56,410 bases of DNA from a virus. Lineage: Duplodnaviria; Caudoviricetes. Location of the stretch: IMG/VR virus record IMGVR_UViG_3300031759_000027, positions 1-56,410 of that record; one strand, given 5' to 3'. Under the pieces are notes generated by a model. It was not told the DNA's origin. It worked only from the letters and a program-made list of their open reading frames with translations, and did not search any database. Both the position numbers and the translations under genes were made by a program. This document shows, one piece after another, positions 2,995 through 56,410 of the stretch. Every line of letters begins with the position of its first letter. The first letter of the stretch is position 1.

Positions 2995-3012
2995 CTCTTG
3001 CTGAGGAAAACC

Positions 3013-3447
3013 ATGTCTAATATTAAAGTCTATTCTAACAGAGACTCTGCCACATCTGCGCTTCGTAAGATGGGCATTGAAGCTCGCGATTACAACCTAT
3101 TTATCTTCAAGGTTAAAGATGACAAAACTAAAGTTGAATGCAACTTTGATCTTGCAGATGCCTACTTAAAAAACAAACACAAATTTGAGAAGCCATTGGG
3201 ATCTCATAAGTTGAAATACATCAAGCAGCCAAAGCCACCTAAAGAACCAAAGATTCCACGTAAGACGTTGTCTGGAGATGTGCGCAAGATGATTCTTGAG
3301 GGTAAATCAAATCAAGAAATTTGGGCAATTATTAAAGTTGACTGGAAACTTGATGATTCTAAAAAGCACTATCCTACTTGGTATCGTTGTGAGATGTCTC
3401 GTAAAGGTTTACTTATTAAGACTGTTGGTTACGGAGACGCACAATGA
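3013..3447 (+). CDS. Hypothetical basic protein with putative DNA-binding C-terminal domain
   Basis: AACTCTTGCTGAGGAAAA box before ATG 3013; C-terminus paralogous to that of 3754..4350. Confidence 0.7.
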   Translation: MSNIKVYSNRDSATSALRKMGIEARDYNLFIFKVKDDKTKVECNFDLADAYLKNKHKFEKPLGSHKLKYIKQPKPPKEPKIPRKTLSGDVRKMILEGKSNQEIWAIIKVDWKLDDSKKHYPTWYRCEMSRKGLLIKTVGYGDAQ

Positions 3448-3532: not shown

Positions 3533-3757
3533 ATGGCCGCTATAGAAATTGTTGACGAAGGTATGTATGATCATGTGCGATTTCAACTGTACATTGATGG
3601 CAGTCGTTGCGCAGCAATTACTAAAGCACCAAAGTGCCCAGTTCAATTTGTTTGGCAAGTCCATGGCCCGCAGTATTGGCCAGCAGCTAAGGAGTTGCTT
3701 CAAGGTTTACTTGAGCTTTCGGTAATCGCAGATAACCTAACAGGAGAGAAGCAATGA
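3533..3757 (+). CDS. Hypothetical protein
   Basis: ORF with ATGA overlap to next gene. Confidence 0.6.
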   Translation: MAAIEIVDEGMYDHVRFQLYIDGSRCAAITKAPKCPVQFVWQVHGPQYWPAAKELLQGLLELSVIADNLTGEKQ

Positions 3758-4350
3758 TTGCGCCATATTGGGACAGAGAAAGGAGAACTTGCATTGTAGT
3801 TCACCGGACGGATGATCTTGTGAAATACATCCCGCTTGAAGTTGCAATTGGTTTAGAAGTTTTGCAAATGAAGGCAAAAGAATTTGACCAGAAGTTTTCG
3901 CTAATGGTTAACTACTCGGCTGAAAAGGCATGTCGTTTATACACTGACTATGCACAGACAATCGGGGCAACAAAGGAGGCTCTAGATTTTCTAGGGAAAC
4001 TAATTGAAATCACTGAAAAGGAGTACAAAATGGCAACTACTAAGAAAAATGCCGCTGCAGTTAAATCAGTACCAACGAAGAAAGCAAGCGCTGCACCTAA
4101 AGAAGCAAAAGCCAGTTCACCGGCTAAGGAAAAGCCAGTGGCGACTGCTAAGCCTGCTAAGAGCGCTGGTAAGAAGCCGTCTGCAGCTCAGATGTTCCAA
4201 GATTTAATCATGGAAGGTAAACTGACAGACGACCAGATTTTTGAGAAGGTCCAAGCTGAATTTGGCCTTGATGAGAAAAAGCGAGCCTACGTCAAGTGGT
4301 ATCGCAACAACTTGCGCAAGCAAGGTAAAACTCCACCAGACGCAAAATAA
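3754..4350 (+). CDS. Hypothetical protein with Lys/Ala-rich linker and putative DNA-binding C-terminal domain
   Basis: GGAG SD; second AAGGAG SD before in-frame ATG 4030. Confidence 0.7.
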   Translation: MIAPYWDRERRTCIVVHRTDDLVKYIPLEVAIGLEVLQMKAKEFDQKFSLMVNYSAEKACRLYTDYAQTIGATKEALDFLGKLIEITEKEYKMATTKKNAAAVKSVPTKKASAAPKEAKASSPAKEKPVATAKPAKSAGKKPSAAQMFQDLIMEGKLTDDQIFEKVQAEFGLDEKKRAYVKWYRNNLRKQGKTPPDAK

Positions 4351-4366: not shown

Positions 4367-5197
4367 ATGGTACAACGTAAAGAAAAGAACCGCGACGACC
4401 GCGAATTTGATAACACCCAGTTGCGCGAAGCTGGTCATGGCCGCACGCTGCATCGTGACTACTCAGCTCACTTTTTTCGCTGGTCATTTGCTCGTCGTTT
4501 TATTACACCTAAAGACACGGTCCTAGAGATTGGTTGCGGTGAAGATAAGCCGCTTAGCAAGATCTTGACTGGTGGCGCAGCAGCTCGTGTCGATAAGTAT
4601 GTTGGTGTTGATCTAAATAAACTTAAACCATCAGGTAGTCAGCGCTTGACTTTCCTAGGTGAGTTTAATTTTGTTGAGCGCCATAAAGAACTTCTTAAAG
4701 ACGAATTTAAGGATGGCTTTGATGTTGTGGTTCATTATGAAGTCATTGAGCACATGCACAGCAAGTACACCTTAAAGTTCTTGAAGAATTGCTTTGATTC
4801 ATTAAAGCCAGGTGGCGCAATGTTAATGTCTACTCCAGTTTGGGATCATGTACGCATGGCGGCAAATCACATCAATGAGATGGACGTTGAGACTTTGCAA
4901 AAGCATACTGAAAAAGCAGGCTTCATAGTTGAGCGTCGCTTTGGAACTTTTATGGACATCAAGCACATCGGTAAGGTAGATACTGACCGCGCATCTAAAG
5001 CTTCAATCGCAGAAGTTCGTACTGCATTAGCTGAGTACTTTGACAACGACGCAATCAGCAACATCTTTGGCCCGCTTTATCCAGATAGTTCACGCAACAA
5101 TCTTTGGGTTTGTCGTAAGCCTTTAGATGGCGCAGCAGCTAAACCTACTAAAGCACCAGCCAAAAAAGTTGCTGCTAAAGGAAAGGCTCCATTCTGA
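4367..5197 (+). CDS. Class I SAM-dependent methyltransferase
   Basis: VLEIGCG motif I, YVGVD, FDVVV..EVIEH, LKPGG...STP; small-molecule (UbiG-like) pattern; no PC or (D/N)PPY DNA-MTase motif seen. Confidence 0.85.
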   Translation: MVQRKEKNRDDREFDNTQLREAGHGRTLHRDYSAHFFRWSFARRFITPKDTVLEIGCGEDKPLSKILTGGAAARVDKYVGVDLNKLKPSGSQRLTFLGEFNFVERHKELLKDEFKDGFDVVVHYEVIEHMHSKYTLKFLKNCFDSLKPGGAMLMSTPVWDHVRMAANHINEMDVETLQKHTEKAGFIVERRFGTFMDIKHIGKVDTDRASKASIAEVRTALAEYFDNDAISNIFGPLYPDSSRNNLWVCRKPLDGAAAKPTKAPAKKVAAKGKAPF

Positions 5198-5658
5198 TGG
5201 GAATCAAATTCACGAATCACGTGGATGTGGCCGACTTCCAAAAGAAGTTTGGCCATCTTCATAACAATAAACCAACGCATTTGACATTGAGAAAACTTCA
5301 AGAGCGCACTGCTTGCATGCTTGAAGAGCTTCAAGAATTTGTTGATGCCGCACATGCGCAAGATTTGGCTGGTCAGGCAGATGCACTTGTAGACCTGGTC
5401 TACTTTGCGCTAGGAACTGCAAACATGATGGGTCTTCCATGGCAAGCATTGTGGGACGACGTCCATCAAGCAAACATGCGAAAGGTCCCAGGTGTTACGA
5501 AGCGAGGCCATTTGGTTGATTGTGTCAAACCTGAAGGTTGGGTCGGGCCAAAGACACTAGAAATCCTTGAGCGCTTTGGGTATAACAAGGAAGTCGATTC
5601 AAAAGAGGAGAACCATTGTGATGATGCCGAATATCAGCGCAGCCCTGACAATCTTTGA
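5197..5658 (+). CDS. MazG-like all-alpha nucleotide pyrophosphohydrolase
   Basis: EELQEF...DALVDLVYFA.G...VH.ANM.K...KPEGW pattern. Confidence 0.85.
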   Translation: MGIKFTNHVDVADFQKKFGHLHNNKPTHLTLRKLQERTACMLEELQEFVDAAHAQDLAGQADALVDLVYFALGTANMMGLPWQALWDDVHQANMRKVPGVTKRGHLVDCVKPEGWVGPKTLEILERFGYNKEVDSKEENHCDDAEYQRSPDNL

Positions 5659-6553
5659 AGGTCCTGATGGTTCTGGTAAGTCAACTGCAGCAAAGGCTTA
5701 CGCAGAACTCACAGGAGCTAAGTACGTCCATTTTCCTGCTTTGCCTAGAGTATCACGTGGCTTAGCTAGAATGTATGTCGAGGCCATGCTTCCTGCGCTT
5801 CTCGGGTACCAGTCAGTTGTCTTTGACCGCTGCTGGTTAAGTGAAATCCCTTACGGAATTGCTTTTCGTGAGGGTTATGATCGGATGACCAGAGCTGACC
5901 GCCGGATGCTTGAGCGCTTGGCGATGCGTTGCGGAGCTGTTGTGGTGAAGTGCTTACCGCCTTGGGAGGACGTTAAACGAACTTATCTAAGTCGTAAGCA
6001 CATGGAGATGTTAGACAATGATGCGCAGTTGAAAACTGTTTACGAGCTTTATGTTAAGCAGAATACTGATCTACCAGTCTACGACTACGATTACACCATG
6101 CAGCCTGCGGGCATTACACCTGATGATTTAACAGGTCTAAGAATGATTTTGCATCCAACTGGTATGGCGTCAGCTGGTAATCTAAGTCCAACATCAATTG
6201 TACTTGTTGGTGAATCATTTGCAGAGCGCAAAGACAATGATTCATTTTATCAATGGCCGTTTGCCTCATTTACAAATGAAGGTTGCAGCCGCTGGTTAAC
6301 AGATCAACTAGACATTGCTGACATCAGAGAGAATAATCTATTTTGGATAAATGCTGATCAAGATCTTTCGGTTTTGAAATCATTTCTCAGAAAACCAGCA
6401 ATTGCATTAGGCGCAGAAGCTTGTCTAAAACTAGAAAAATTAGATATCGATGCGATTGGTATTCCGCATCCTCAATATCACAAAAGATTTAATGGTCGAG
6501 AAAACTACGCACTGATAACAACTATTAACAAAGTAAAGGCACAAAAGGTATGA
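5621..6553 (+). CDS. dNMP (thymidylate-type) kinase fused to a UDG-like domain
   Basis: IFEGPDGSGKST P-loop and FDR motif; C-terminal IVLVGE...PF...INA...IALG..A...PHP; AGGAG SD before ATG 5621. Confidence 0.8.
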   Translation: MMPNISAALTIFEGPDGSGKSTAAKAYAELTGAKYVHFPALPRVSRGLARMYVEAMLPALLGYQSVVFDRCWLSEIPYGIAFREGYDRMTRADRRMLERLAMRCGAVVVKCLPPWEDVKRTYLSRKHMEMLDNDAQLKTVYELYVKQNTDLPVYDYDYTMQPAGITPDDLTGLRMILHPTGMASAGNLSPTSIVLVGESFAERKDNDSFYQWPFASFTNEGCSRWLTDQLDIADIRENNLFWINADQDLSVLKSFLRKPAIALGAEACLKLEKLDIDAIGIPHPQYHKRFNGRENYALITTINKVKAQKV

Positions 6554-7365
6554 ACTACTTCCCAGAAGTCTGGATTGATACATTAGACGACCTTATGAAC
6601 AACGGCAGATTCGTTGCTCCTAGGGGTAAGATGACACGTGAGCTCCCGCAGCGGACTATTGAAGTTGATATGCGCCGCCCAGTTCTTACAGTGCCAGCTA
6701 GAAAGCTTAGCTACCAGTTCATGGCTGCTGAAGCTTATTGGATTTTAACTGGTGATGATCGTGTTGCTTCAATTGCGCCGTATAACAAGAACATTGCTAA
6801 CTTTAGCGATGATGGTGAAACTTTCTTTGGGGCTTATGGTCCGAAGATCTTAAATCAGATTGAGTACGTAGTTGCTAAGTTAGTTGCTGACCCCGGTAGT
6901 AGGCAGGCAGGATTGACTATCTGGCGAGAGAATCCTCCTGAGACTAAGGATGTACCTTGCACAGTTGCTGTCTTCTTCTCAATTCGAGGATTAGAACTGA
7001 ATTGCCACGTGTTTATGAGGTCCTCTGATGCATGGTTAGGTGTACCTTATGATGTGTTTAACTTCAGCATGCTATCACACCTAGTTTGCAGCCTAGTTAA
7101 TGAGAAGACGTGGGCAATAAATGACGCGACAACTGAAGAACGAATTTTATACGCCCCAGGCACCTTGTACCTGACTGCTGCGTCGTCTCATATTTACTCT
7201 GAGCACTGGGAAGCTGCGCAAAGTCCAGCAATTAGAAAGTGGGAGCATCAACATGCAACACCTCACCAATGTTTTACTAAGGCCACTGCGATTTACGCAA
7301 CGCTTCAAAAGCTTCGTGACTCTAAACCTGGCGATTCAATTCGTTGGTGGGAGCAAATGAAATGA
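6550..7365 (+). CDS. Thymidylate synthase superfamily enzyme, dCMP-modifying (Asp) type
   Basis: GAYG, SRQA, DVPC (catalytic Cys), MRSSD..LGVPYD, S.HIY; Asp168 at the ThyA Asn177 position. Confidence 0.85.
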   Translation: MNYFPEVWIDTLDDLMNNGRFVAPRGKMTRELPQRTIEVDMRRPVLTVPARKLSYQFMAAEAYWILTGDDRVASIAPYNKNIANFSDDGETFFGAYGPKILNQIEYVVAKLVADPGSRQAGLTIWRENPPETKDVPCTVAVFFSIRGLELNCHVFMRSSDAWLGVPYDVFNFSMLSHLVCSLVNEKTWAINDATTEERILYAPGTLYLTAASSHIYSEHWEAAQSPAIRKWEHQHATPHQCFTKATAIYATLQKLRDSKPGDSIRWWEQMK

Positions 7366-7832
7366 GGCCAGATCGTGATGAGTGGGCGATGGACTTGGCC
7401 TTGTTGACCTCTAGAAGATCAACTTGCTTACGCCGTCAAGTAGGTTGTATTCTATTAAACGAGCGAGGACATGTTTTAGCAACCGGGTACAACGGGGTCG
7501 CTGCTGGGCAACCTCATTGCAATCATCACGATCAGTATCATGAGCTTGGGTTTCCTAACGCGTGTTCTGGTGCCCACTCACCAAGTGGGACAAATTTAGA
7601 TGGTTGTCAAGCAATTCACGCAGAGCAAAATGCTTTGTTACAGTGTCGTGATGTTTACACGATTCATACAGCCTACACAACAACAAGTCCATGCGTTACT
7701 TGCGCAAAGCTTTTGCTAAACACTAGCTGCCAGCGAATTGTCTTCTTTGAGGCATACGTTAATCAAGACGCCAAAAAGCTTTGGGAAGATGCCGGACGTG
7801 AGTGGGTTCATTTTAAATACATGAGGGAATAA
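7362..7832 (+). CDS. dCMP deaminase family protein
   Basis: STC.RR.VG, GYNG, HAEQNA, PCxxC. Confidence 0.9.
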   Translation: MRPDRDEWAMDLALLTSRRSTCLRRQVGCILLNERGHVLATGYNGVAAGQPHCNHHDQYHELGFPNACSGAHSPSGTNLDGCQAIHAEQNALLQCRDVYTIHTAYTTTSPCVTCAKLLLNTSCQRIVFFEAYVNQDAKKLWEDAGREWVHFKYMRE

Positions 7833-10386: not shown

Positions 10387-10555
10387 TCACCAACATTGTG
10401 AAAAGCCTTGTGATGATAATGAATGTAAATCCCTACGACGGATGCCAATCCAACGGCCAATGAGTCATAAGGAGGCTGATGATCTTCTTAACATAATTGG
10501 AAATGGCAGCTTTGCCTTAATCAGAGCCGTTGAACGATTTCATGGGATTGAATAA
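10379..10555 (+). CDS. Hypothetical protein (58 aa)
   Basis: AAGGAG SD; hand translation MNDHQHCEKPC... Confidence 0.55.
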   Translation: MNDHQHCEKPCDDNECKSLRRMPIQRPMSHKEADDLLNIIGNGSFALIRAVERFHGIE

Positions 10556-10701
10556 TGTCTGCCTGGCTTATCATCGTCACAGGTATGATTTACTCATATA
10601 TTGCCTGCGAGCAGCTCTACCGTGGAAATGTTTGGATGGCTGTTGTTTACTTCGGGTATTCATTCTCAAATATTGGCTTGTACATGTTAGCTACTAAATG
10701 A
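10555..10701 (+). CDS. Small membrane protein (48 aa)
   Basis: Hand translation MSAWLIIVTGMIYSYIACEQ...; two hydrophobic segments; TAATG coupling. Confidence 0.6.
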   Translation: MSAWLIIVTGMIYSYIACEQLYRGNVWMAVVYFGYSFSNIGLYMLATK

Positions 10702-10722
10702 CTTATAAACGAGTCATTTAGT
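10693..10722. terminator. Hairpin at the convergence of the two gene blocks
   Basis: ACTAAATGACT / AGTCATTTAGT 11-bp inverted repeat with 8-nt loop between converging stops; no strong U tract. Confidence 0.55.
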
Positions 10723-10724
10723 AC

Positions 10725-11144
10725 TTATAGGTTGTAAGTTTTAATAGGTTCGTGACTCTTTAGATCAACATTACAAGCCCATTTGACAGCCTCTTCAGCA
10801 GTTAGACCCATGCGCATGCAAACTTCAGCAGCCATGGCGCCAGATCCAATTGCCATAAAAGTTTTAGCTCTTTCCCATTCAAGATCTTCACCACAGTAAA
10901 AGAGACCTTCTTTAGTTAGCTTGATAAAAGAACTATCAGGCTTAAGCTTTGGTTTTACTTTACTCTTTTTGTTAATGTACTCGACTACCTTGTCACAATC
11001 ACTCCAGTTGCCAGCCACCCCTAACCACCCACCTTCAATCGGCACAATTTTCTCTTCAAAGTACTTAATGCCAGTGTCCTCATCTGAAAATTGACTGTCA
11101 GACACCAGAATTTTATTAGTCCAATCACCAACGATAGTAGTCAT
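10725..11144 (-). CDS. Ntn-hydrolase (HslV/proteasome beta-like) protein
   Basis: N-terminal MTTI (Thr nucleophile), DSQ, K, GVAG, AIGSGA, AV..A...D..S. Confidence 0.75.
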   Translation of the reverse strand: MTTIVGDWTNKILVSDSQFSDEDTGIKYFEEKIVPIEGGWLGVAGNWSDCDKVVEYINKKSKVKPKLKPDSSFIKLTKEGLFYCGEDLEWERAKTFMAIGSGAMAAEVCMRMGLTAEEAVKWACNVDLKSHEPIKTYNL

Positions 11145-11146
11145 AA

Positions 11147-12124
11147 TTACACCTTATTTATGCAACCTCTAAATTCAAACTCGTCTTCACCTGACACCAT
11201 AATGAGCTCAGGCATTAGCATCCTACCATTTTCAAATGACAGTAAGACAAAACCAGATCGCCAATCTGTTGGTGCGTCCTCGATGTAGTGAATAAACGCC
11301 TCAGATTTAGGATCTGCCAATGTACCAGTCTGCACACCCCATCGTGTTCCGTTGTAATCTGTTATTGGGGCGGCTGATAGATTGTGCGTGTGGCCAGTGA
11401 TCATGTTGACGCCGGAGTTTAATGCGTTTGCCCGACCAGCCCCAAAACCACCTTTCCAGCGATGTTTGATGCAGGTATCTTCATTTACCCAAAAGCTCCA
11501 GCAACTCTTCCAGAATGGGAAGTGATCTTTTAATGTAAAGCCTTGGACACCTTCATACGAGGTTGCACCAGAATTGCTCAGGAACGTCTCAAATCTAGCG
11601 TCGTGATTACCTAAGCACCAGATCAGTTCAGCGTTTCCTGCAAGCTTCTCGATGCCTCCCATGAATTCCTGGCAGGCTTCTAGTTCTTCTTTGACAGTTG
11701 GTGTTGATGACCAGTTAATTCGTGGGTGCCTAGAAGCTTGTGAACCATCAAAGATATCACCATTAGCCACAATTGCTTTAATCTCGCCCTTAAATGTTTT
11801 AAGGACCGCTAGCAAAGCCCTATACGCAGTGGTGACTTCATCTGGTTGAAAATGAGCGTCAGAGAATACAACAACCCGACCCTTTTTAATGTCCATCCCG
11901 CGGCGGACATGGCCATTAGTCTGTTCGATCTTTTTGATAATTTCAAATGGCCTACCTGGCCCACTCTTTGACACAAGCTTAATGCCGTACTTAACTTCAA
12001 GCGAGCGTCTTCTAAAATAAACTGCTCTAATGTCAGTTGCTAAAGCTTTGCTGACTGCCGAGGCGCTTTTTAATTCATTCCAACACTTGATGAATGACTC
12101 ATCATCTACTATGTAACCTGGCAT
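11147..12124 (-). CDS. Calcineurin-like metallophosphoesterase with N-terminal HTH-like region
   Basis: SDAH, NGDIFD, GNHD, H, GHTH motifs. Confidence 0.88.
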   Translation of the reverse strand: MPGYIVDDESFIKCWNELKSASAVSKALATDIRAVYFRRRSLEVKYGIKLVSKSGPGRPFEIIKKIEQTNGHVRRGMDIKKGRVVVFSDAHFQPDEVTTAYRALLAVLKTFKGEIKAIVANGDIFDGSQASRHPRINWSSTPTVKEELEACQEFMGGIEKLAGNAELIWCLGNHDARFETFLSNSGATSYEGVQGFTLKDHFPFWKSCWSFWVNEDTCIKHRWKGGFGAGRANALNSGVNMITGHTHNLSAAPITDYNGTRWGVQTGTLADPKSEAFIHYIEDAPTDWRSGFVLLSFENGRMLMPELIMVSGEDEFEFRGCINKV

Positions 12125-42945: not shown

Positions 42946-45078
42946 TTGGCAACTAAACAAACGAAAAGATCTCCATCAGAGATCCTTGGTAAGCCGTCAG
43001 CTGAGTTAAAAGCTGCTGACCTTGGCTTATTAAAGTTAGCAAGTTCAGGCCTAGATCTTGATGACGCTAAAAAGTTGAGCATGTCCTTCTTAGGTCCAAT
43101 CTCCACAAGTAAGCTGCATCCCTCGTTCAAGGCGCTTAGTGCGTTAAAGATTGATTATCTTGGCATCGATGGTAAGCCCATCAGTGACTGGCACGCAGCA
43201 CCACCCTTCTACCGCATCAGGTACTTAGAAGCCGGAACTGGTTTTGATGCCATTAGTGTGAAGAAAGAAATCAGGTATACCCAAGAACCAAATACAGCTC
43301 CAGTTGCCTACTACCCTGGTAATTGTGACTGGACGAAAATTTCAAAGAACGTTGATGTGCCAATCATCATCACTGAAGGTGAGCTGAAAGCTGCAAAGGC
43401 CTGCAAGGAAGGTTTTCCGACCATTGGCCTTGGTGGTGTCTATAACTGGCGAAGCGCAAAACTGGGGTTAGGTTGGTTGCCAAGCCTAGAGCTCATTGAT
43501 TGGAAGCGGCGCAATATCTACATTTGCTTTGACTCAGACTACCAAACAAATCCGATGGTGTGTGCTGCTTTAAAAGAGCTTGCTGATGAGCTAGAGCGGC
43601 GCGGCAGCTTTGCGCACATCGTCACGCTACCTAGCCTTGATGGCTTAGAAAAGGTTGGTCTTGATGACTTCTTAGTGCATGCTGGTGTTGATGCGAATGA
43701 TCAGTTTGCAAATTTGTTACGTGTTGCTGAGCCACTTGGCATGGCCAAGGTGCTGTTCGCGTTTAATGAGAAATATGTGTATGCTGACAGTCCTGGCCTG
43801 ATTGTGAATCAGGAGACGAGTCAGAAGATTAGCCCATCTGCGTTTAAGGACCACTTAGAATCGGTGGCAAACTATCAGGAGCGGAAGCTGAAGGCCGATG
43901 GTTCAGTTGTCTTTCAAACTGTATCAGCCGGAGGAGCTTGGATTAAGTGGCCACTCAGGCAACGAGTTGATAAGATTACTTATGTGCCAGGAGCCGAGCG
44001 CTTTGTGCATGGTGAGAACCGCGTGATGCTGAATACCTGGCCAGGTTGGGGTTGCGAACCGAAAGCCGGTGATGTGCAGCCGTTCTTAGATTTGCTTGAT
44101 CACATCTTTAAGGGTGCTGAATCAGGCGCCTTGCAGTGGTTCTTACGTTGGTGCGCCTATCCAATTCAGTACCCAGGGACGAAGTTGTTTAGTAGTGCGG
44201 TGATTCATGGTATTAGACACGGAACTGGTAAGTCACTCATTGGCTATACGTTAGGTAGGATCTACGGCAAGAACTTCACTGAGATCAGCCAAATGGACTT
44301 GCACAACGGCTTTAATGAGTGGGCAGAGTCGAAGCAGCTGGCCATGGGCGATGACGTGACAGGTAGTAATAAACGGGCTGATGCCGACTTCTTGAAGAAG
44401 CTGATCACGCAGCGTGAGCTTAGGATTAACGCGAAGTTTATTCCTAGCTACACGGTCCCTGATTGCCTGAACTACTTCTTTACAGCAAACCATCCTGACT
44501 CGTTCTTTTTAGAAGACGACGATCGGCGGATGTTTGTGCATGAGGTGCATGTTGGTCCCTTGCCAGAACAGTTCTATATGGAATATGACCTGTGGCTAGA
44601 TACTGGCGGTGCTGAGGCGATCTTTCATTACTTGCTGAACTTAGATCTTGGTGACTTCAATCCAGCAGCTCCTGCCTTTAAGACAGCTGCGAAAGAGCGC
44701 ATGATCAGCAACGTGCAGAGTGACTTAGCCGGTTGGGTTCGCAGCTTACAATCTGTTCCTGATCACGTCCTTAAGGTTGGTGAGATTGTGGTGAACAAGG
44801 ACTTGTTTACAAGTAAAGAGTTGCTGCAGTTCTATGATCCATCTGGAAAGACCGGCACGACAGCAAATGGCCTGGGCCGTGAACTTGCCAGAGCAGGAAT
44901 TCGTCAGGTGATTAGCGGCAAGCCCGTTAGGTTGGCTGATGGTAGTCAAGCCAGGTACTACGCCGTGCGAAATGCTGACCACTGGTTAACAGCTGGAATA
45001 GCAGATGTGACAAGCCACCTGAATGCCTGGAACAAGGGGCATGGCGCCGGAAGCCCAGTGAAAGCTGCAAAGTACTAG
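42946..45078 (+). CDS. Primase-helicase (Toprim DUF3854-like plus SF3-like NTPase)
   Basis: ITEGELKA, IGLGGV, FDSD, GLDD; GTGKS Walker A, TANH...DDRR; TTG start. Confidence 0.88.
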   Translation: MATKQTKRSPSEILGKPSAELKAADLGLLKLASSGLDLDDAKKLSMSFLGPISTSKLHPSFKALSALKIDYLGIDGKPISDWHAAPPFYRIRYLEAGTGFDAISVKKEIRYTQEPNTAPVAYYPGNCDWTKISKNVDVPIIITEGELKAAKACKEGFPTIGLGGVYNWRSAKLGLGWLPSLELIDWKRRNIYICFDSDYQTNPMVCAALKELADELERRGSFAHIVTLPSLDGLEKVGLDDFLVHAGVDANDQFANLLRVAEPLGMAKVLFAFNEKYVYADSPGLIVNQETSQKISPSAFKDHLESVANYQERKLKADGSVVFQTVSAGGAWIKWPLRQRVDKITYVPGAERFVHGENRVMLNTWPGWGCEPKAGDVQPFLDLLDHIFKGAESGALQWFLRWCAYPIQYPGTKLFSSAVIHGIRHGTGKSLIGYTLGRIYGKNFTEISQMDLHNGFNEWAESKQLAMGDDVTGSNKRADADFLKKLITQRELRINAKFIPSYTVPDCLNYFFTANHPDSFFLEDDDRRMFVHEVHVGPLPEQFYMEYDLWLDTGGAEAIFHYLLNLDLGDFNPAAPAFKTAAKERMISNVQSDLAGWVRSLQSVPDHVLKVGEIVVNKDLFTSKELLQFYDPSGKTGTTANGLGRELARAGIRQVISGKPVRLADGSQARYYAVRNADHWLTAGIADVTSHLNAWNKGHGAGSPVKAAKY

Positions 45079-49853: not shown

Positions 49854-50041
49854 CAACGTTTACTGGTGACGAATATGGCGGACCTGAATTGCAGATTGGT
49901 AAGTACCGCCTAAGGTCTAACCTAACAAACTCAAAGATCCACATCAGCTTAATGGATGGTGATCGGTTTGTTGAAGCCGGGCAATTTAGCGCAAAGCAGC
50001 TAGAAGCTGTGATTGACCAGTTTTATAAGGAGAAGTTCTGA
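49850..50041 (+). CDS. Hypothetical protein
   Basis: GGAGG SD, coupled to ligase. Confidence 0.6.
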   Translation: MTTFTGDEYGGPELQIGKYRLRSNLTNSKIHISLMDGDRFVEAGQFSAKQLEAVIDQFYKEKF

Positions 50042-50946
50042 TGTCTGAATTTAAACCCATGCTTGCCAGCCCGACTGATGGTCACAAGCTTACGTTTCCG
50101 ATGCTAGTCAGCCCGAAGCTAGATGGCGTCAGGTGCCTGATCATCGACGGCGTGGCTATGAGCCGGTCACTCAAGCCCATTCCTAACAAGCACGTGCAAA
50201 AGCTGTTTGGGCGCAAGGACCTAAATGGCTTAGATGGCGAGCTGATTGTAGGACCACCAACTGCAAAAGATGTGTACAACAAAACCACGTCAGGCATCAT
50301 GACGATTGAAGGTGAGCCTGCAGTTAAGTTTTACGTGTTTGATGACTTTAGCGCCAAGGACAAGGTAAAAGAAAACTTGTTTGGTCAATCGTCTCATTTT
50401 GAACATCGATTGCTGAGTTCCATTAGAAGGATTACTTTAGAAGATAACTGTAAGGAAGTTAAGCACTACAAGGCAAATAACGAAGCTGATTTATTTCACT
50501 ATGAAGCCCACTTTTTAAAGCAAGGCTATGAGGGCATGATGCTTAGATTGCCAACTAGCCCATACAAATTTGGTAGATCTACTACTAAAGAGGCTTGGCT
50601 ACTAAAGCTAAAGAGGTTTATTGATAGTGAGGCCGAGATCATTGGCATGACTGAGCTCATGACAAACACCAATGAAGCGGTTAGAAATGAGCTGGGTCAT
50701 CTAGAGAGGTCCTCAAAGAAGGCTGGAATGAAGGGTAAAGATACCCTTGGGTCCTTGATTGTTAGAGATATTAAAACTAAGGTGGAATTTGAAATTGGAA
50801 CTGGGTTTACTGCAGAGCAGCGAGCTGGCATCTGGAAGCTAAACCCAATTGGAACACTTGTGAAATATAAGAGTCAACCTGTGGGCGTAAAAGATAAACC
50901 ACGCTTTCCGGTCTTTTTAGGCTTTAGAAACACAATAGACCTATAA
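50041..50946 (+). CDS. ATP-dependent DNA ligase
   Basis: PKLDGVR motif I, LDGEL, FYVFD, GYEG.M.R, LLKLK, OB-fold GTGF...RFP.F.GFR. Confidence 0.93.
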   Translation: MSEFKPMLASPTDGHKLTFPMLVSPKLDGVRCLIIDGVAMSRSLKPIPNKHVQKLFGRKDLNGLDGELIVGPPTAKDVYNKTTSGIMTIEGEPAVKFYVFDDFSAKDKVKENLFGQSSHFEHRLLSSIRRITLEDNCKEVKHYKANNEADLFHYEAHFLKQGYEGMMLRLPTSPYKFGRSTTKEAWLLKLKRFIDSEAEIIGMTELMTNTNEAVRNELGHLERSSKKAGMKGKDTLGSLIVRDIKTKVEFEIGTGFTAEQRAGIWKLNPIGTLVKYKSQPVGVKDKPRFPVFLGFRNTIDL

Positions 50947-54313: not shown

Positions 54314-54526
54314 ATGTATAAAAAAGAAATTAAGAACACAGCTTTAAAATCATGGATTGGTTTAAATGATTTTCTACCAACTGCAGATGAAGCAGTCTGC
54401 AAACAACTACTCCGTGAAGAGATGAAGGGAAGATCAAGAGAGTCTTTTTTAAACCGCATCCACAGCCGCTTGAACAAGGTCAGGGCTGATCGTGAGCGTG
54501 CTGAGTTGAAAGAAAAATCAAAATGA
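54314..54526 (+). CDS. Hypothetical protein coupled to polymerase
   Basis: ATGA overlap with polymerase start. Confidence 0.65.
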   Translation: MYKKEIKNTALKSWIGLNDFLPTADEAVCKQLLREEMKGRSRESFLNRIHSRLNKVRADRERAELKEKSK

Positions 54527-56410
54527 AGCAGCCAAAGCCTGTTGTAGTTGACTTTGAGACCTTTGGAATTGAAGGTCGTCCTGATTACCCACCTAAGCCG
54601 GTGGGAGTCTCGATTAAGTACCCTGGAAAGAAGGCAAAATATTATGGTTGGGGTCATCCAACAAAGAACAACAGCACGTTTGCTGAAGCGCAAGCAGAGT
54701 TAAAGAAGGCCTACGAGCATAAAGATGGGCTGCTCTTTCAAAATGCTAAGTTTGACGTGGATGTGGCTGATGCGCACATGGGCTTACCAGTGCCTGCATG
54801 GCATCTAATCCATGACACATTGTTCTTATTGTTCTTAGATGATCCTCATCAGAAAGAGCTAGGTTTGAAGCCATCATCTGAGCGGCTGCTAGGTCTTCCA
54901 CCTGAAGAACAAGATGCTGTTGGTGAATGGCTAGTAGAAAATCAACCCCTTAAAGGCGTTAAGATCAGCAAAGCAAAATCATCTGAGCACTATTTTGGCC
55001 GGTACATTGCGCTAGCTCCTGGTGACATTGTTGGTAAGTATGCCAATGGTGACGTTGACAGAACCGAGCAGCTATTCAATTTACTGTGGCCAAAGACATT
55101 AGAGCGTAAGATGCTTGAAGCTTATGATCGTGAGCGCGAGCTTATGCCAATTCTTTTAGAGATGGAGCGCAATGGAGTTCCTGTTGATTTAAAACGGCTT
55201 AGATCAGATGTTGAGATCTACAACGAGTGGCGCCATAAGATTGACGTATGGATCATTAAGTCATTAAAGGCAGATCCGCTGATTAACTTAGATTCTGGTG
55301 AACAGCTTGTCAAAGCCATGGTGCTATGCGGTAAAGCAGATCCTAATTTGATTCCAAAGACTCCGACAGGGAAGTTTCAAACAAATAAGGCTGCTTTGTT
55401 GTTAGGAGTTACTGACAAGGTACTTTTAGCGATGCTTAAATACAGGACTCAACTAAACACCTGTATGAACACCTTCATGGAGCCTTGGCTTAGAGTCGCT
55501 GAGAAGTCAGGTGGCAAGATCTTTACTACTTGGAACCAAACTAAATCAACTGAGTCTGGTGGTTCAGTAGGCACACGGACTGGTCGCTTGTCAAGCACCC
55601 CAAACTTTCAAAACGTCCCCAAGATCTTTAAGCCGATCTTTGATCACGAGCAACCTAAGGCAAAACTGCCAAAGTGCCCACTCAAAGATCTACCTGGTTT
55701 GCCACTTGTAAGAAGCTACATCATCTCGTCAAAGGGCCACGTGCTATGTGGCAGGGACTTCAGCAGCCAGGAGCTTCGCGTATTAGCCCACTTTGAAGAT
55801 GGTGAAATGAAAGACAGATACAACGTAGAACCAAAAACTGACTTGCATCAATATGCTGCAGACTTGATCACAAGCACAACAGGCGTTGTTGTTAGCCGGT
55901 CAGACGCTAAGACGATCGCGTTCTCAATTTTGTATGGTAGTGGTCTTGGTAAGTTGGCTGAAGGTGTTGGATGCTCAGTTGATGAGGCCAAGCAACTTCG
56001 CAATGCTTACTTGGGCACCTTTGCAGGTATTAAGAACATGCAGAAGGACATGAAGTCAAGAGCAGGTGAGAAGTTACCTATTAGAACTTGGGGCGGTCGT
56101 GAGTATTACTGCGAGGAGCCAAAGTTTGTCGATGGCAGATTAAGAACTTTTGACTACAAGCTTTTAAACGTCCTCATTCAAGGATCATCAGCAGATCAGA
56201 CCAAAGCAGCAATGATCAGGTTCTATAATGCTAAAACTTCTGGAAAGCTGCTCTTAACAGTGCACGATGAAATTATTGTTGAGGCCCCTGTCAAGCAAGC
56301 TAAGGCGGTCATGGCTGCATTAAAGACTGCAATGAACGAAGCAGGATTAGACGTGCCAATGATCAGTGATGGTGAGATGGGTAATATCTGGACTGAAATG
56401 AAAGAGTGTG
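54523..56410 (+). CDS. polA: Family A DNA polymerase (missing from ORF track; completes at nt 8 across the join)
   Basis: Hand translation: DFET and NAKFD exonuclease motifs, TGRLSS.PN.QN, DFSSQELR (A), RSDAKTIAFSILYG (B), IQGSSAD, TVHDEI (C). Confidence 0.95.
   Translation, partial: MKQPKPVVVDFETFGIEGRPDYPPKPVGVSIKYPGKKAKYYGWGHPTKNNSTFAEAQAELKKAYEHKDGLLFQNAKFDVDVADAHMGLPVPAWHLIHDTLFLLFLDDPHQKELGLKPSSERLLGLPPEEQDAVGEWLVENQPLKGVKISKAKSSEHYFGRYIALAPGDIVGKYANGDVDRTEQLFNLLWPKTLERKMLEAYDRERELMPILLEMERNGVPVDLKRLRSDVEIYNEWRHKIDVWIIKSLKADPLINLDSGEQLVKAMVLCGKADPNLIPKTPTGKFQTNKAALLLGVTDKVLLAMLKYRTQLNTCMNTFMEPWLRVAEKSGGKIFTTWNQTKSTESGGSVGTRTGRLSSTPNFQNVPKIFKPIFDHEQPKAKLPKCPLKDLPGLPLVRSYIISSKGHVLCGRDFSSQELRVLAHFEDGEMKDRYNVEPKTDLHQYAADLITSTTGVVVSRSDAKTIAFSILYGSGLGKLAEGVGCSVDEAKQLRNAYLGTFAGIKNMQKDMKSRAGEKLPIRTWGGREYYCEEPKFVDGRLRTFDYKLLNVLIQGSSADQTKAAMIRFYNAKTSGKLLLTVHDEIIVEAPVKQAKAVMAALKTAMNEAGLDVPMISDGEMGNIWTEMKEC

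Follow-up and report, generated by a model that had tools for sequence, protein, structure and literature searches.

Hypermodification of phage DNA decides which restriction and other defence systems are escaped and is a source of tools for epigenome sequencing. Here we describe a five-gene cassette at positions 4367-7832 of the complete IMG/VR virus record IMGVR_UViG_3300031759_000027 (56,410 bp; the whole of this stretch is the window), whose closest described counterparts are the cytosine-modification genes of phage T4 and a module recovered from metaviromes by MetaGPA. In T4 the corresponding proteins are a nucleoside triphosphate (NTP) pyrophosphatase (gp56), an enzyme of thymidylate synthase (TS) fold with Asp at position 177 and Thr after the catalytic Cys (gp42), a nucleoside monophosphate kinase (gp1) and a dCMP deaminase (cd); the beta-glucosyltransferase gene, b-gt, adjoins gene 42. 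Among the metavirome contigs treated by MetaGPA, TS, PRA-PH and dCMP-deaminase domains are reported to co-occur specifically on those with modified cytosine, TS positions 177 and 147 are the discriminating residues, and a carbamoyltransferase decorates 5-hydroxymethylcytosine (5hmC) to give 5-carbamoyloxymethylcytosine (PMC8670742). In a follow-up study, deaminases adjoining genes for Asp177 TS homologues are often selective for 5-methylcytosine (5mC) (bioRxiv 2024.12.05.627091).

The window carries all four core domains of the MetaGPA module, with the TS and deaminase genes within 3 kb of each other, the spacing used as a criterion in the same preprint. The core of the system (the Asp177 TS homologue, PRA-PH, deaminase and a family A DNA polymerase, PolA) is therefore already published as a metavirome module for C5-modified cytosine. 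In such a module one would expect another enzyme of the cluster to derivatise the 5-CH2OH group; here the accessory enzyme is a class I S-adenosylmethionine (SAM)-dependent methyltransferase, and no carbamoyltransferase was found. The word "methyltransferase" is absent from the eLife main text of MetaGPA (PMC8670742) and occurs four times in the preprint; the supplements of either may list the present methyltransferase family. The comparison with T4 is similar: the TS homologue of the window is only 23% identical to gp42 and stands nearer to MilA, the pyrophosphatase is of the PRA-PH/MazG type, the kinase is thymidylate-kinase (TMPK)-like and fused to a uracil-DNA glycosylase (UDG) fold, and a SAM methyltransferase occupies the place of the glycosyltransferase. 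It is the methyltransferase and the kinase-UDG fusion that make the cassette an undescribed variant of a known system.

The same five genes, in the same order, are present in two cultured phages, Stenotrophomonas phage AXL3 (gp27-gp31) and Pseudoxanthomonas phage PW916, and in the metagenomic record MW202621.1; in a further record, MW202510.1, the methyltransferase and TS genes lie close together. The methyltransferases of AXL3 and PW916 are 71% identical to that of the window, their kinase-UDG proteins 47-48% and their TS homologues 52-55%; with MW202621.1 included the ranges become 71-74% (methyltransferase), 47-49% (kinase) and 52-61% (TS). In other respects the two phages differ from the window: they are siphoviruses of 47.5-47.8 kb whose genomes are otherwise unlike it (no megablast match), and AXL3 has a ThyX. 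Of 37 restriction enzymes tested on AXL3 DNA, 35, all with G or C in their sites, failed, and only TasI and Tru1I, whose sites consist of A and T alone, cut it; the authors interpreted the five genes as a route to dTMP and did not identify the modification (PMC7504290). The available portion of the PW916 paper holds no restriction data (PMC9414467), and our search returned no literature linking AXL3 to an identified cytosine base.

All five open reading frames (ORFs) of the cassette are on the + strand and each overlaps its neighbour: the methyltransferase (4367-5197, 276 aa), the MazG-like (PRA-PH) pyrophosphohydrolase (5197-5658, 153 aa), the kinase-UDG fusion (5567/5618-6553), the TS homologue (6550-7365, 271 aa) and the dCMP deaminase (7344/7362-7832). 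The initial annotation of the window had proposed this same cluster, and every ORF lies where it was said to lie; the Pfam classes are those claimed and PHROGs agrees with them, the Thymidylate_kin match being below its cut-off. Translational coupling, also proposed there, fits the junctions. The methyltransferase stop codon TGA (5195-5197) shares one base with the MazG ATG at 5197 (TGATG, 5195-5199); the kinase start (GTG at 5618 or ATG at 5621/5624, with GAGGAG ahead of it at 5605-5610) is inside the 3′-end of the MazG gene, which stops at 5656-5658; and ATGA overlaps join kinase-UDG to TS (6550-6553) and TS to deaminase (7362-7365), the last of which makes 7362, rather than 7344, the most likely deaminase start. 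The arrangement is not due to chance, as the cassette was met again in 51 loci of IMG/VR and in four phages of GenBank; these genes form a genuine and conserved unit for nucleotide modification.

The substrate of the TS homologue (6550-7365; PF00303, 3.7e-22, 79.2 bits against a cut-off of 24.3) can be predicted from a small number of diagnostic positions. The nucleophile is Cys137 (codon 6958-6960) and the equivalents of Glu58, Tyr94, Cys146, Arg166, Asp169, His207 and Tyr209 are all kept across the family. At the site of Asn177, the residue is Asp168, in the motif PYD, encoded by GAT at 7051-7053, precisely as first reported for the window; moreover, Asp at this site and Thr at the site of His147 are found in 50 of 50 family members. 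The pair H214/Y216, which corresponds to H207/Y209 of the E. coli enzyme, is invariant in alignment A1 and present in the same 50 members; we take this His/Tyr pair to be a marker of the deoxyribose type. Judged from these residues, the prediction that the enzyme is cytosine-specific is well supported, in keeping with the cytosine-type assignment made at the outset. A canonical ThyA converting dUMP to dTMP was considered and rejected, given the Asp in place of Asn177 and scores for all seven NCBIfam TS models that are far below their equivalog cut-offs (e.g., 54.7 against 174.55).

Asp177 alone cannot separate a methylase from a hydroxymethylase, and it is from other features that we predict a dCMP 5-hydroxymethylase. 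The best match of the TS homologue in the PDB is the CMP 5-hydroxymethylase MilA (1e-20, versus 3.5e-14 for the best true TS), and MilA, in a pairwise alignment, also has Thr and Asp at both diagnostic sites. The residue after the catalytic Cys is Thr throughout the family (50/50) and in T4 gp42, Pro in the 5mC synthase of Xp12 and His in ThyA. In an unrooted tree of 54 sequences (MAFFT and FastTree; SH-like supports from this one method, with Xp12 as the sole characterised methylase) a split with support of 0.917 places E. coli ThyA and the Xp12 enzyme on one side and the family, T4 gp42 and an SPO1-like enzyme on the other. The SPO1-like enzyme is presumably a dUMP hydroxymethylase; its own record does not annotate it. 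The TS homologue of the window is 29% identical to the Xp12 TS. Xp12 resembles the window in that its Asp177 TS homologue adjoins a deaminase of the dCMP family; it differs in the Pro after Cys, in a neighbouring DHFR, in having no homologue of the methyltransferase and in falling on the ThyA side of the split. In the window, searches for a DHFR, a ThyX or a second TS found none.

Of particular relevance to the product are five related contigs in which a homologue of T4 beta-glucosyltransferase lies between the TS and deaminase genes (PF09198, 1.1e-23; 29.6% identical to T4 b-gt over 324 residues), just as b-gt adjoins gene 42 in T4. The TS proteins of these contigs form a subclade (support 1.0) that is nested inside the family. 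Taken together, tree, diagnostic residues and gene neighbours make it probable that the enzyme's product is 5-hydroxymethyl-dCMP and not 5-methyl-dCMP.

The methyltransferase (4367-5197; Methyltransf_23, 6e-13) is better conserved than any other gene of the cassette, as judged by the protein identities given above. A scan of IMG/VR anchored on the TS homologue yielded 51 loci, in which a MazG-like gene was found in 49, a deaminase in 44, the methyltransferase in 40 (39 inside the locus and one just outside that labelled L037) and the kinase in 37. Conversely, a scan anchored on the methyltransferase confirmed 303 loci; when the best 80 were examined, 73 had the TS homologue within 7 kb, and in five of the seven misses the contig ends within ∼1.5 kb of the methyltransferase. 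In GenBank, homologues of the methyltransferase occur in five of 50,697 phage records, all five of which have the TS gene. Megablast of the cassette against these 50,697 records gave no match, and the relatives are visible at the protein level only. The family is abundant: a search of a wider protein collection (E up to 0.001) returned 814 clusters at 90% identity, the top 120 of them at least 67% identical and on contigs of up to ∼64 kb. It also appears to be confined to viruses, the neighbours in the ESM Atlas being nearly all viral.

The distributions of the methyltransferase and of the glucosyltransferase do not overlap. Classified by these two genes, 41 contigs (including the window) carry the methyltransferase without the glucosyltransferase, five the glucosyltransferase without the methyltransferase, none both and six neither; the underlying PF09198 search covered the window and 39 of the 40 related methyltransferase contigs, leaving out the L037 contig. 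Similarly, no glucosyltransferase was found in the 80 methyltransferase-anchored loci and no methyltransferase in the five glucosyltransferase contigs. In the window itself, PF09198, PF00535, PF00534 and PF02543 found no match in six frames over the whole record, and Pfam or PHROGs scans of 56 ORFs, which did not extend to many of the small ones, revealed no glycosyltransferase. More broadly, ThyX, DHFR, a second TS, T4-BGT, GT1, GT2 and carbamoyltransferase were searched for in the record and none was found. The absence of a glycosyltransferase noted in the initial annotation is consistent with these searches.

What the methyltransferase is not can be said with some precision. Its Pfam matches (E up to 0.01) are generic: Methyltransf_23, 12, 11, 31 and 25, and CMAS. 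There is no match to PF00145 or to an N6/N4 family at the same threshold, and the translation contains neither a catalytic PC nor a (D/N/S)PP(Y/F) motif; as a positive control the PF00145 search recovered matches in neighbouring genes of two related loci, L004 and L020. In profile searches of the PDB the nearest entry is UbiG, an O-methyltransferase (6.7e-10), followed by Hen1 domains. The earlier view that this is not a DNA C5 or N6 enzyme is borne out by these results. It is not a member of the UbiG or Hen1 families, since its NCBIfam scores are far below the equivalog cut-offs (TIGR01983, 35 bits against 102.95; TIGR04074, 26 bits against 340). Alignment A2, of 32 sequences, has 31 invariant residues, among them an N-terminal R-D-Y-x-x-H-x-x-R-W block, E-V-x-E-H, S-T-P and N-H. 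The AlphaFold2 model (pLDDT 86.7) is of a compact class I enzyme and was compared with the PDB by Foldseek and with 48,161 chains by VIA-align; Hen1 is not among the 50 fold matches listed. Because the architecture is compact, of the small-molecule type and devoid of a DNA-recognition domain, we favour action on a nucleotide over action on DNA.

The above observations suggest a pathway of the T4 type in which dC would be exchanged, before replication, for a C5-substituted dC. The MazG-like enzyme would hydrolyse dCTP to dCMP. The TS-fold enzyme would then add the methylene group of methylenetetrahydrofolate to C5 of dCMP and resolve the intermediate with water, giving 5-hydroxymethyl-dCMP, the new hydroxyl of which may be methylated by the SAM-dependent methyltransferase; of the reactions open to that enzyme, O-methylation of 5-CH2OH to 5-methoxymethylcytosine would be the most likely. 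Phosphorylation of the modified nucleotide is assigned to the kinase domain, with host nucleoside diphosphate kinase and the phage PolA completing incorporation, and the deaminase would feed dUMP, or a deaminated product, towards dTTP. That the methyltransferase O-methylates hydroxymethylcytosine is plausible, the argument being one of gene linkage; the whole chain, this step included, we regard as possible rather than probable. Enzyme classes, active-site residues and gene linkage are what the data show; all substrates and products are inferred. More tentative again is the fullest version, in which every cytosine in the DNA of this phage and of several hundred metavirome relatives, as judged by the 814 methyltransferase clusters, would be 5-methoxymethylcytosine, made before replication by a virus-only O-methyltransferase, with the kinase-UDG protein gating the finished nucleotide into the dNTP pool.

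Two alternatives raised in the initial annotation are not supported. A plain methoxy base does not fit the TS-fold enzyme, which adds a one-carbon unit, so that of the two bases named there only methoxymethyl is compatible. Deamination to a modified uracil finds no support either: AXL3 DNA was cut only by enzymes with A/T-only sites, a pattern that indicates a modified C or G and leads away from bulk replacement of T. Among the literature matches listed we found no report of methoxymethylcytosine in nucleic acids from any organism. If the proposed pathway is correct, then the phage would counter enzymes that recognise 5hmC or glucosyl-5hmC in a chemically new way, by capping 5hmC with a small, uncharged ether, and both the methyltransferase and the kinase-UDG fusion would represent new enzyme activities on modified pyrimidines, the former from a family as abundant as the 814 clusters and 303 IMG/VR loci indicate. 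Since AXL3 and PW916 are in culture and carry the cassette, the reading is directly testable.

A number of observations weigh against this pathway, most of them at the methyltransferase step. All NCBIfam matches of the enzyme are far below cut-off, and its fold matches are to generic class I enzymes (N-, C- and O-methyltransferases) tied at Z 17-19, so the acceptor atom is not given by the fold. A Hen1-like metal site (E-x-x-E-H...N-H) was examined as evidence and dropped, because the E-x-x-E-H motif occurs in both Hen1 and UbiG and is not diagnostic. Two of the methyltransferase-anchored loci, L135 and L141, whose methyltransferases are 40-41% identical, have no TS within 7 kb, and five TS contigs (L027, L028-L030 and L032, here the L027 group) have neither methyltransferase nor glucosyltransferase. 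The mutual exclusivity of the two genes (Fisher p = 1.8e-4) is overstated by this figure, as the glucosyltransferase contigs form one clade (support 1.0) and amount to approximately one evolutionary event. As regards the TS homologue, support is modest both for the family clade (0.741) and for placing the glucosyltransferase subclade within it (0.686), and the TS proteins linked to the glucosyltransferase are just 43-48% identical to that of the window. Loss of Trp80, tried as a marker of hydroxymethylases, was given little weight: the column differs between A1 and the 54-sequence alignment, and T4 gp42 keeps the Trp. Lastly, in the preprint, five of seven tested Asp177 TS homologues from beside deaminases made 5-methyl-dCMP (bioRxiv 2024.12.05.627091), from which it follows that methylation is common in this kind of module.

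This last result favours the suggestion that the TS homologue is a dCMP methylase of the Xp12 type: the DNA would contain 5mC, the deaminase would be selective for 5mC, dTTP would be drawn from 5-methyl-dCTP and the role of the methyltransferase would be unrelated. Asp177 does not discriminate here, the window's want of a thymidylate synthase of its own would be compatible with a supply of dTTP through 5mC, and the restriction resistance of AXL3 would fit 5mC equally well. On the other side stand the separation of the family from both Xp12 and ThyA (0.917), the Thr rather than Pro after the catalytic Cys, a best solved relative that is a hydroxymethylase, sister contigs that carry a 5hmC glucosyltransferase, and the want in the window of a DHFR such as adjoins the Xp12 TS. 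Furthermore AXL3 encodes its own ThyX (PMC7504290) and does not therefore need a 5mC route to dTTP. We consider the Xp12-type explanation very improbable.

A second possibility accepts hydroxymethylation, on the same TS evidence, and holds that the DNA contains plain 5hmC; the methyltransferase would act elsewhere, on an RNA end, a protein or a small metabolite, and would be linked to the cassette through co-inheritance or co-regulation. Its fold is of the small-molecule/RNA type, with Hen1, mRNA-cap and tRNA enzymes among the matches, PHROGs names the nearest family "tRNA methyltransferase", and the five TS contigs of the L027 group manage without either methyltransferase or glucosyltransferase. 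Against this, the gene is found almost exclusively beside TS (73 of the best 80 methyltransferase-anchored loci and five of five GenBank records), its stop codon shares a base with the MazG start codon, no other gene of the cassette is as well conserved, and precisely the contigs with a 5hmC glucosyltransferase lack it. We think this reading unlikely, while granting it more weight than any other competitor to O-methylation. The linkage evidence serves just as well a third proposal, that the methyltransferase acts on the modified cytosine, as nucleotide or in DNA, at N4, N3 or phosphate, to give for example N4-methyl-5-hydroxymethylcytosine; fold neighbours do include phosphoethanolamine N-methyltransferase, toxoflavin N1-methyltransferase and cypemycin N-methyltransferase. 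Yet the enzyme has no (D/N/S)PP(Y/F)-type motif and no match to DNA N4/N6 methylases (E up to 0.01), the hydroxyl is the sole nucleophile newly created by the pathway, and the sister contigs replace the methyltransferase with an enzyme that targets precisely that hydroxyl. Methylation at another atom is accordingly judged improbable, and O-methylation of the 5-CH2OH group is the reaction we prefer.

The third gene encodes a fusion, and the assignment of a deoxynucleoside monophosphate kinase joined to a UDG, made in the initial annotation, was confirmed on a predicted model (AlphaFold, 30 sequences; pLDDT 93.7, pTM 0.92). The N-terminal part is a thymidylate-kinase-like P-loop kinase domain (5618-6142, + strand; phrog_761, 5.5e-16): residues 7-176 of the model align to thymidylate kinases, best to 5x7j (VIA, Z 13.6), and the neighbours returned by Foldseek are TMPK, deoxynucleoside kinase (dNK) and YorR. 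The match to Pfam Thymidylate_kin (8.9e-4, 19.4 bits) is below the cut-off of 27. G15, G20, K21, R71 and Y79 are invariant, D70 is nearly so and the DR-x-W/Y motif is present. The domain would phosphorylate modified dCMP.

The remainder of the protein (6143-6553, + strand) is a minimal domain of the family-4 UDG fold. Residues 176-311 of the model align to the T. maritima family-4 UDG 1l9g (Z 10.3, root-mean-square deviation 2.8, 128 aligned residues, 27% identity) and to UdgX 6ail (Z 9.9, VIA, again for the predicted model). A profile of the domain finds family-4 UDG or UdgX in 26 of its 28 PDB matches, but at E of 0.1-0.3 only; a single-sequence phmmer search of the PDB with the fusion gave weak kinase matches only, and Pfam UDG (PF03167) has no match in six frames at E up to 10. 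Neighbours of the C-terminal part in the ESM Atlas are stand-alone viral proteins of 119-127 aa, 19-36% of which have PF03167. A segment of ∼28 residues in UdgX and UDG4, that which carries the Fe-S cluster, has no counterpart here, and the UDG-like motif A reads GESFA, not GE(A/G)PG, its Glu varying among relatives; the pocket Asn (N70) and the H109 and P110 of motif B are invariant among 23 relatives (alignment A4). Because of the lack of a PF03167 match, the GESFA motif and the absent segment, we file the domain as UDG-fold and not as a family-4 UDG. Its ligand is probably a nucleotide of the pyrimidine class or else a flipped base.

A parallel is offered by the 5-HMUDK/aGPT-Pplase system of thymidine hypermodification (PMC8989533), where a P-loop kinase is likewise found beside a pyrimidine hydroxymethylase and a fold like that of a DNA glycosylase; on this likeness the kinase-UDG fusion possibly acts on the base within DNA. 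The differences are that the kinase of the window is TMPK-like with a DR(W) motif, that its partner has the UDG fold and not a helix-hairpin-helix, and that the base is cytosine; tblastn gave no match of the window kinase to the phages encoding 5-HMUDK. The kinase gene also varies in form: among the 37 TS-anchored loci that have it, six encode a kinase-only version (166-186 aa) and one copy is cut by the end of the contig. In 12 other loci (L005:5618-5992 and 11 more) it is replaced by an unrelated protein of 120-139 aa with no Pfam family. Part of this replacement is 52% identical to an Xp12 protein (L057 46249-46446) that adjoins the Xp12 TS and is annotated as a HAD hydrolase. The kinase-UDG proteins of the L027 group are without the HPQ motif.

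The MazG-like (PRA-PH) protein (5197-5658, + strand) is an all-alpha NTP pyrophosphohydrolase (PF01503, 6.2e-19, 68.6 bits against a cut-off of 21.3; phrog_671, nucleotide pyrophosphohydrolase, 3.1e-25); that it is a dCTPase supplying dCMP we infer. The product of 7362-7832 (+ strand) is a zinc deaminase of the dCMP/dCTP family (PF00383, dCMP_cyt_deam_1, 3.3e-20, 72.3 bits against 25; phrog_174, 4.4e-40), with both zinc motifs, HAE and PCxxC, in the translation. In the L027 group a YibB/HtrL-like protein (L027:8171-8920; NCBIfam 3.8e-18, below cut-off) is encoded ∼0.8 kb downstream of the deaminase.

Several features of the methyltransferase and of its surroundings deserve mention in their own right. 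The C-terminus (5122-5197) is a basic tail rich in Ala, Lys and Pro that ends in A-P-F; among 32 homologues seven end in APF and one in ASF, each after a basic linker, and in a more distant clade the tail has a conserved W-S-S-S...W motif instead. A C-terminal aromatic residue after a flexible linker resembles what we take to be the docking tails of replication proteins. In L004 (3200-4546) and L020 (3512-4621) a gene for a C5-cytosine DNA methylase (PF00145, 4e-16 and 6e-18) directly follows the methyltransferase gene, and the same is true of L122, L124, L125, L127, L128, L130, L131, L133 and L135; such an insertion is odd for phages expected to be without unmodified cytosine. In the L037 contig (G007:C1:10497-11245) the homologue is divided between two adjacent frames, 10497-11045 and 11048-11245, which suggests a frameshift or a sequencing error.

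Immediately upstream of the methyltransferase is a conserved ORF (3754-4350, + strand) with a long centre rich in Ala, Lys and Pro; no Pfam family matched it and its membership of the cassette is uncertain. By tblastn a homologue is found directly upstream of the methyltransferase in 30 of the 51 related loci. The last ∼50 residues of its product resemble, in translation, the C-terminus of the product of 2998-3447.

Elsewhere in the window the + strand holds the genes for replication and nucleotide metabolism, and the − strand those for terminase, portal, major head, sheath-like, baseplate and lysis proteins. In addition to the cassette the + strand encodes an exonuclease (18-761), a SNF2-type helicase (1001-2479), a primase-like protein (42946-45078), an HNH endonuclease, an ATP-dependent ligase (50041-50946) and PolA (54523-56409; PF00476, 1.5e-61), the polymerase on which the initial annotation had called for incorporation. 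The PolA ORF is open at its 3′-end and meets no stop before the end of the record, which places the end of a cut or circularly permuted record within the gene or just beyond it. Placed between the early and the lysis genes, on the − strand at 10725-12124, are a gene for a peptidase-like protein of the HslV family (phrog_1040, 1.8e-25) and one for a calcineurin-like metallophosphoesterase (phrog_221; PF00149).

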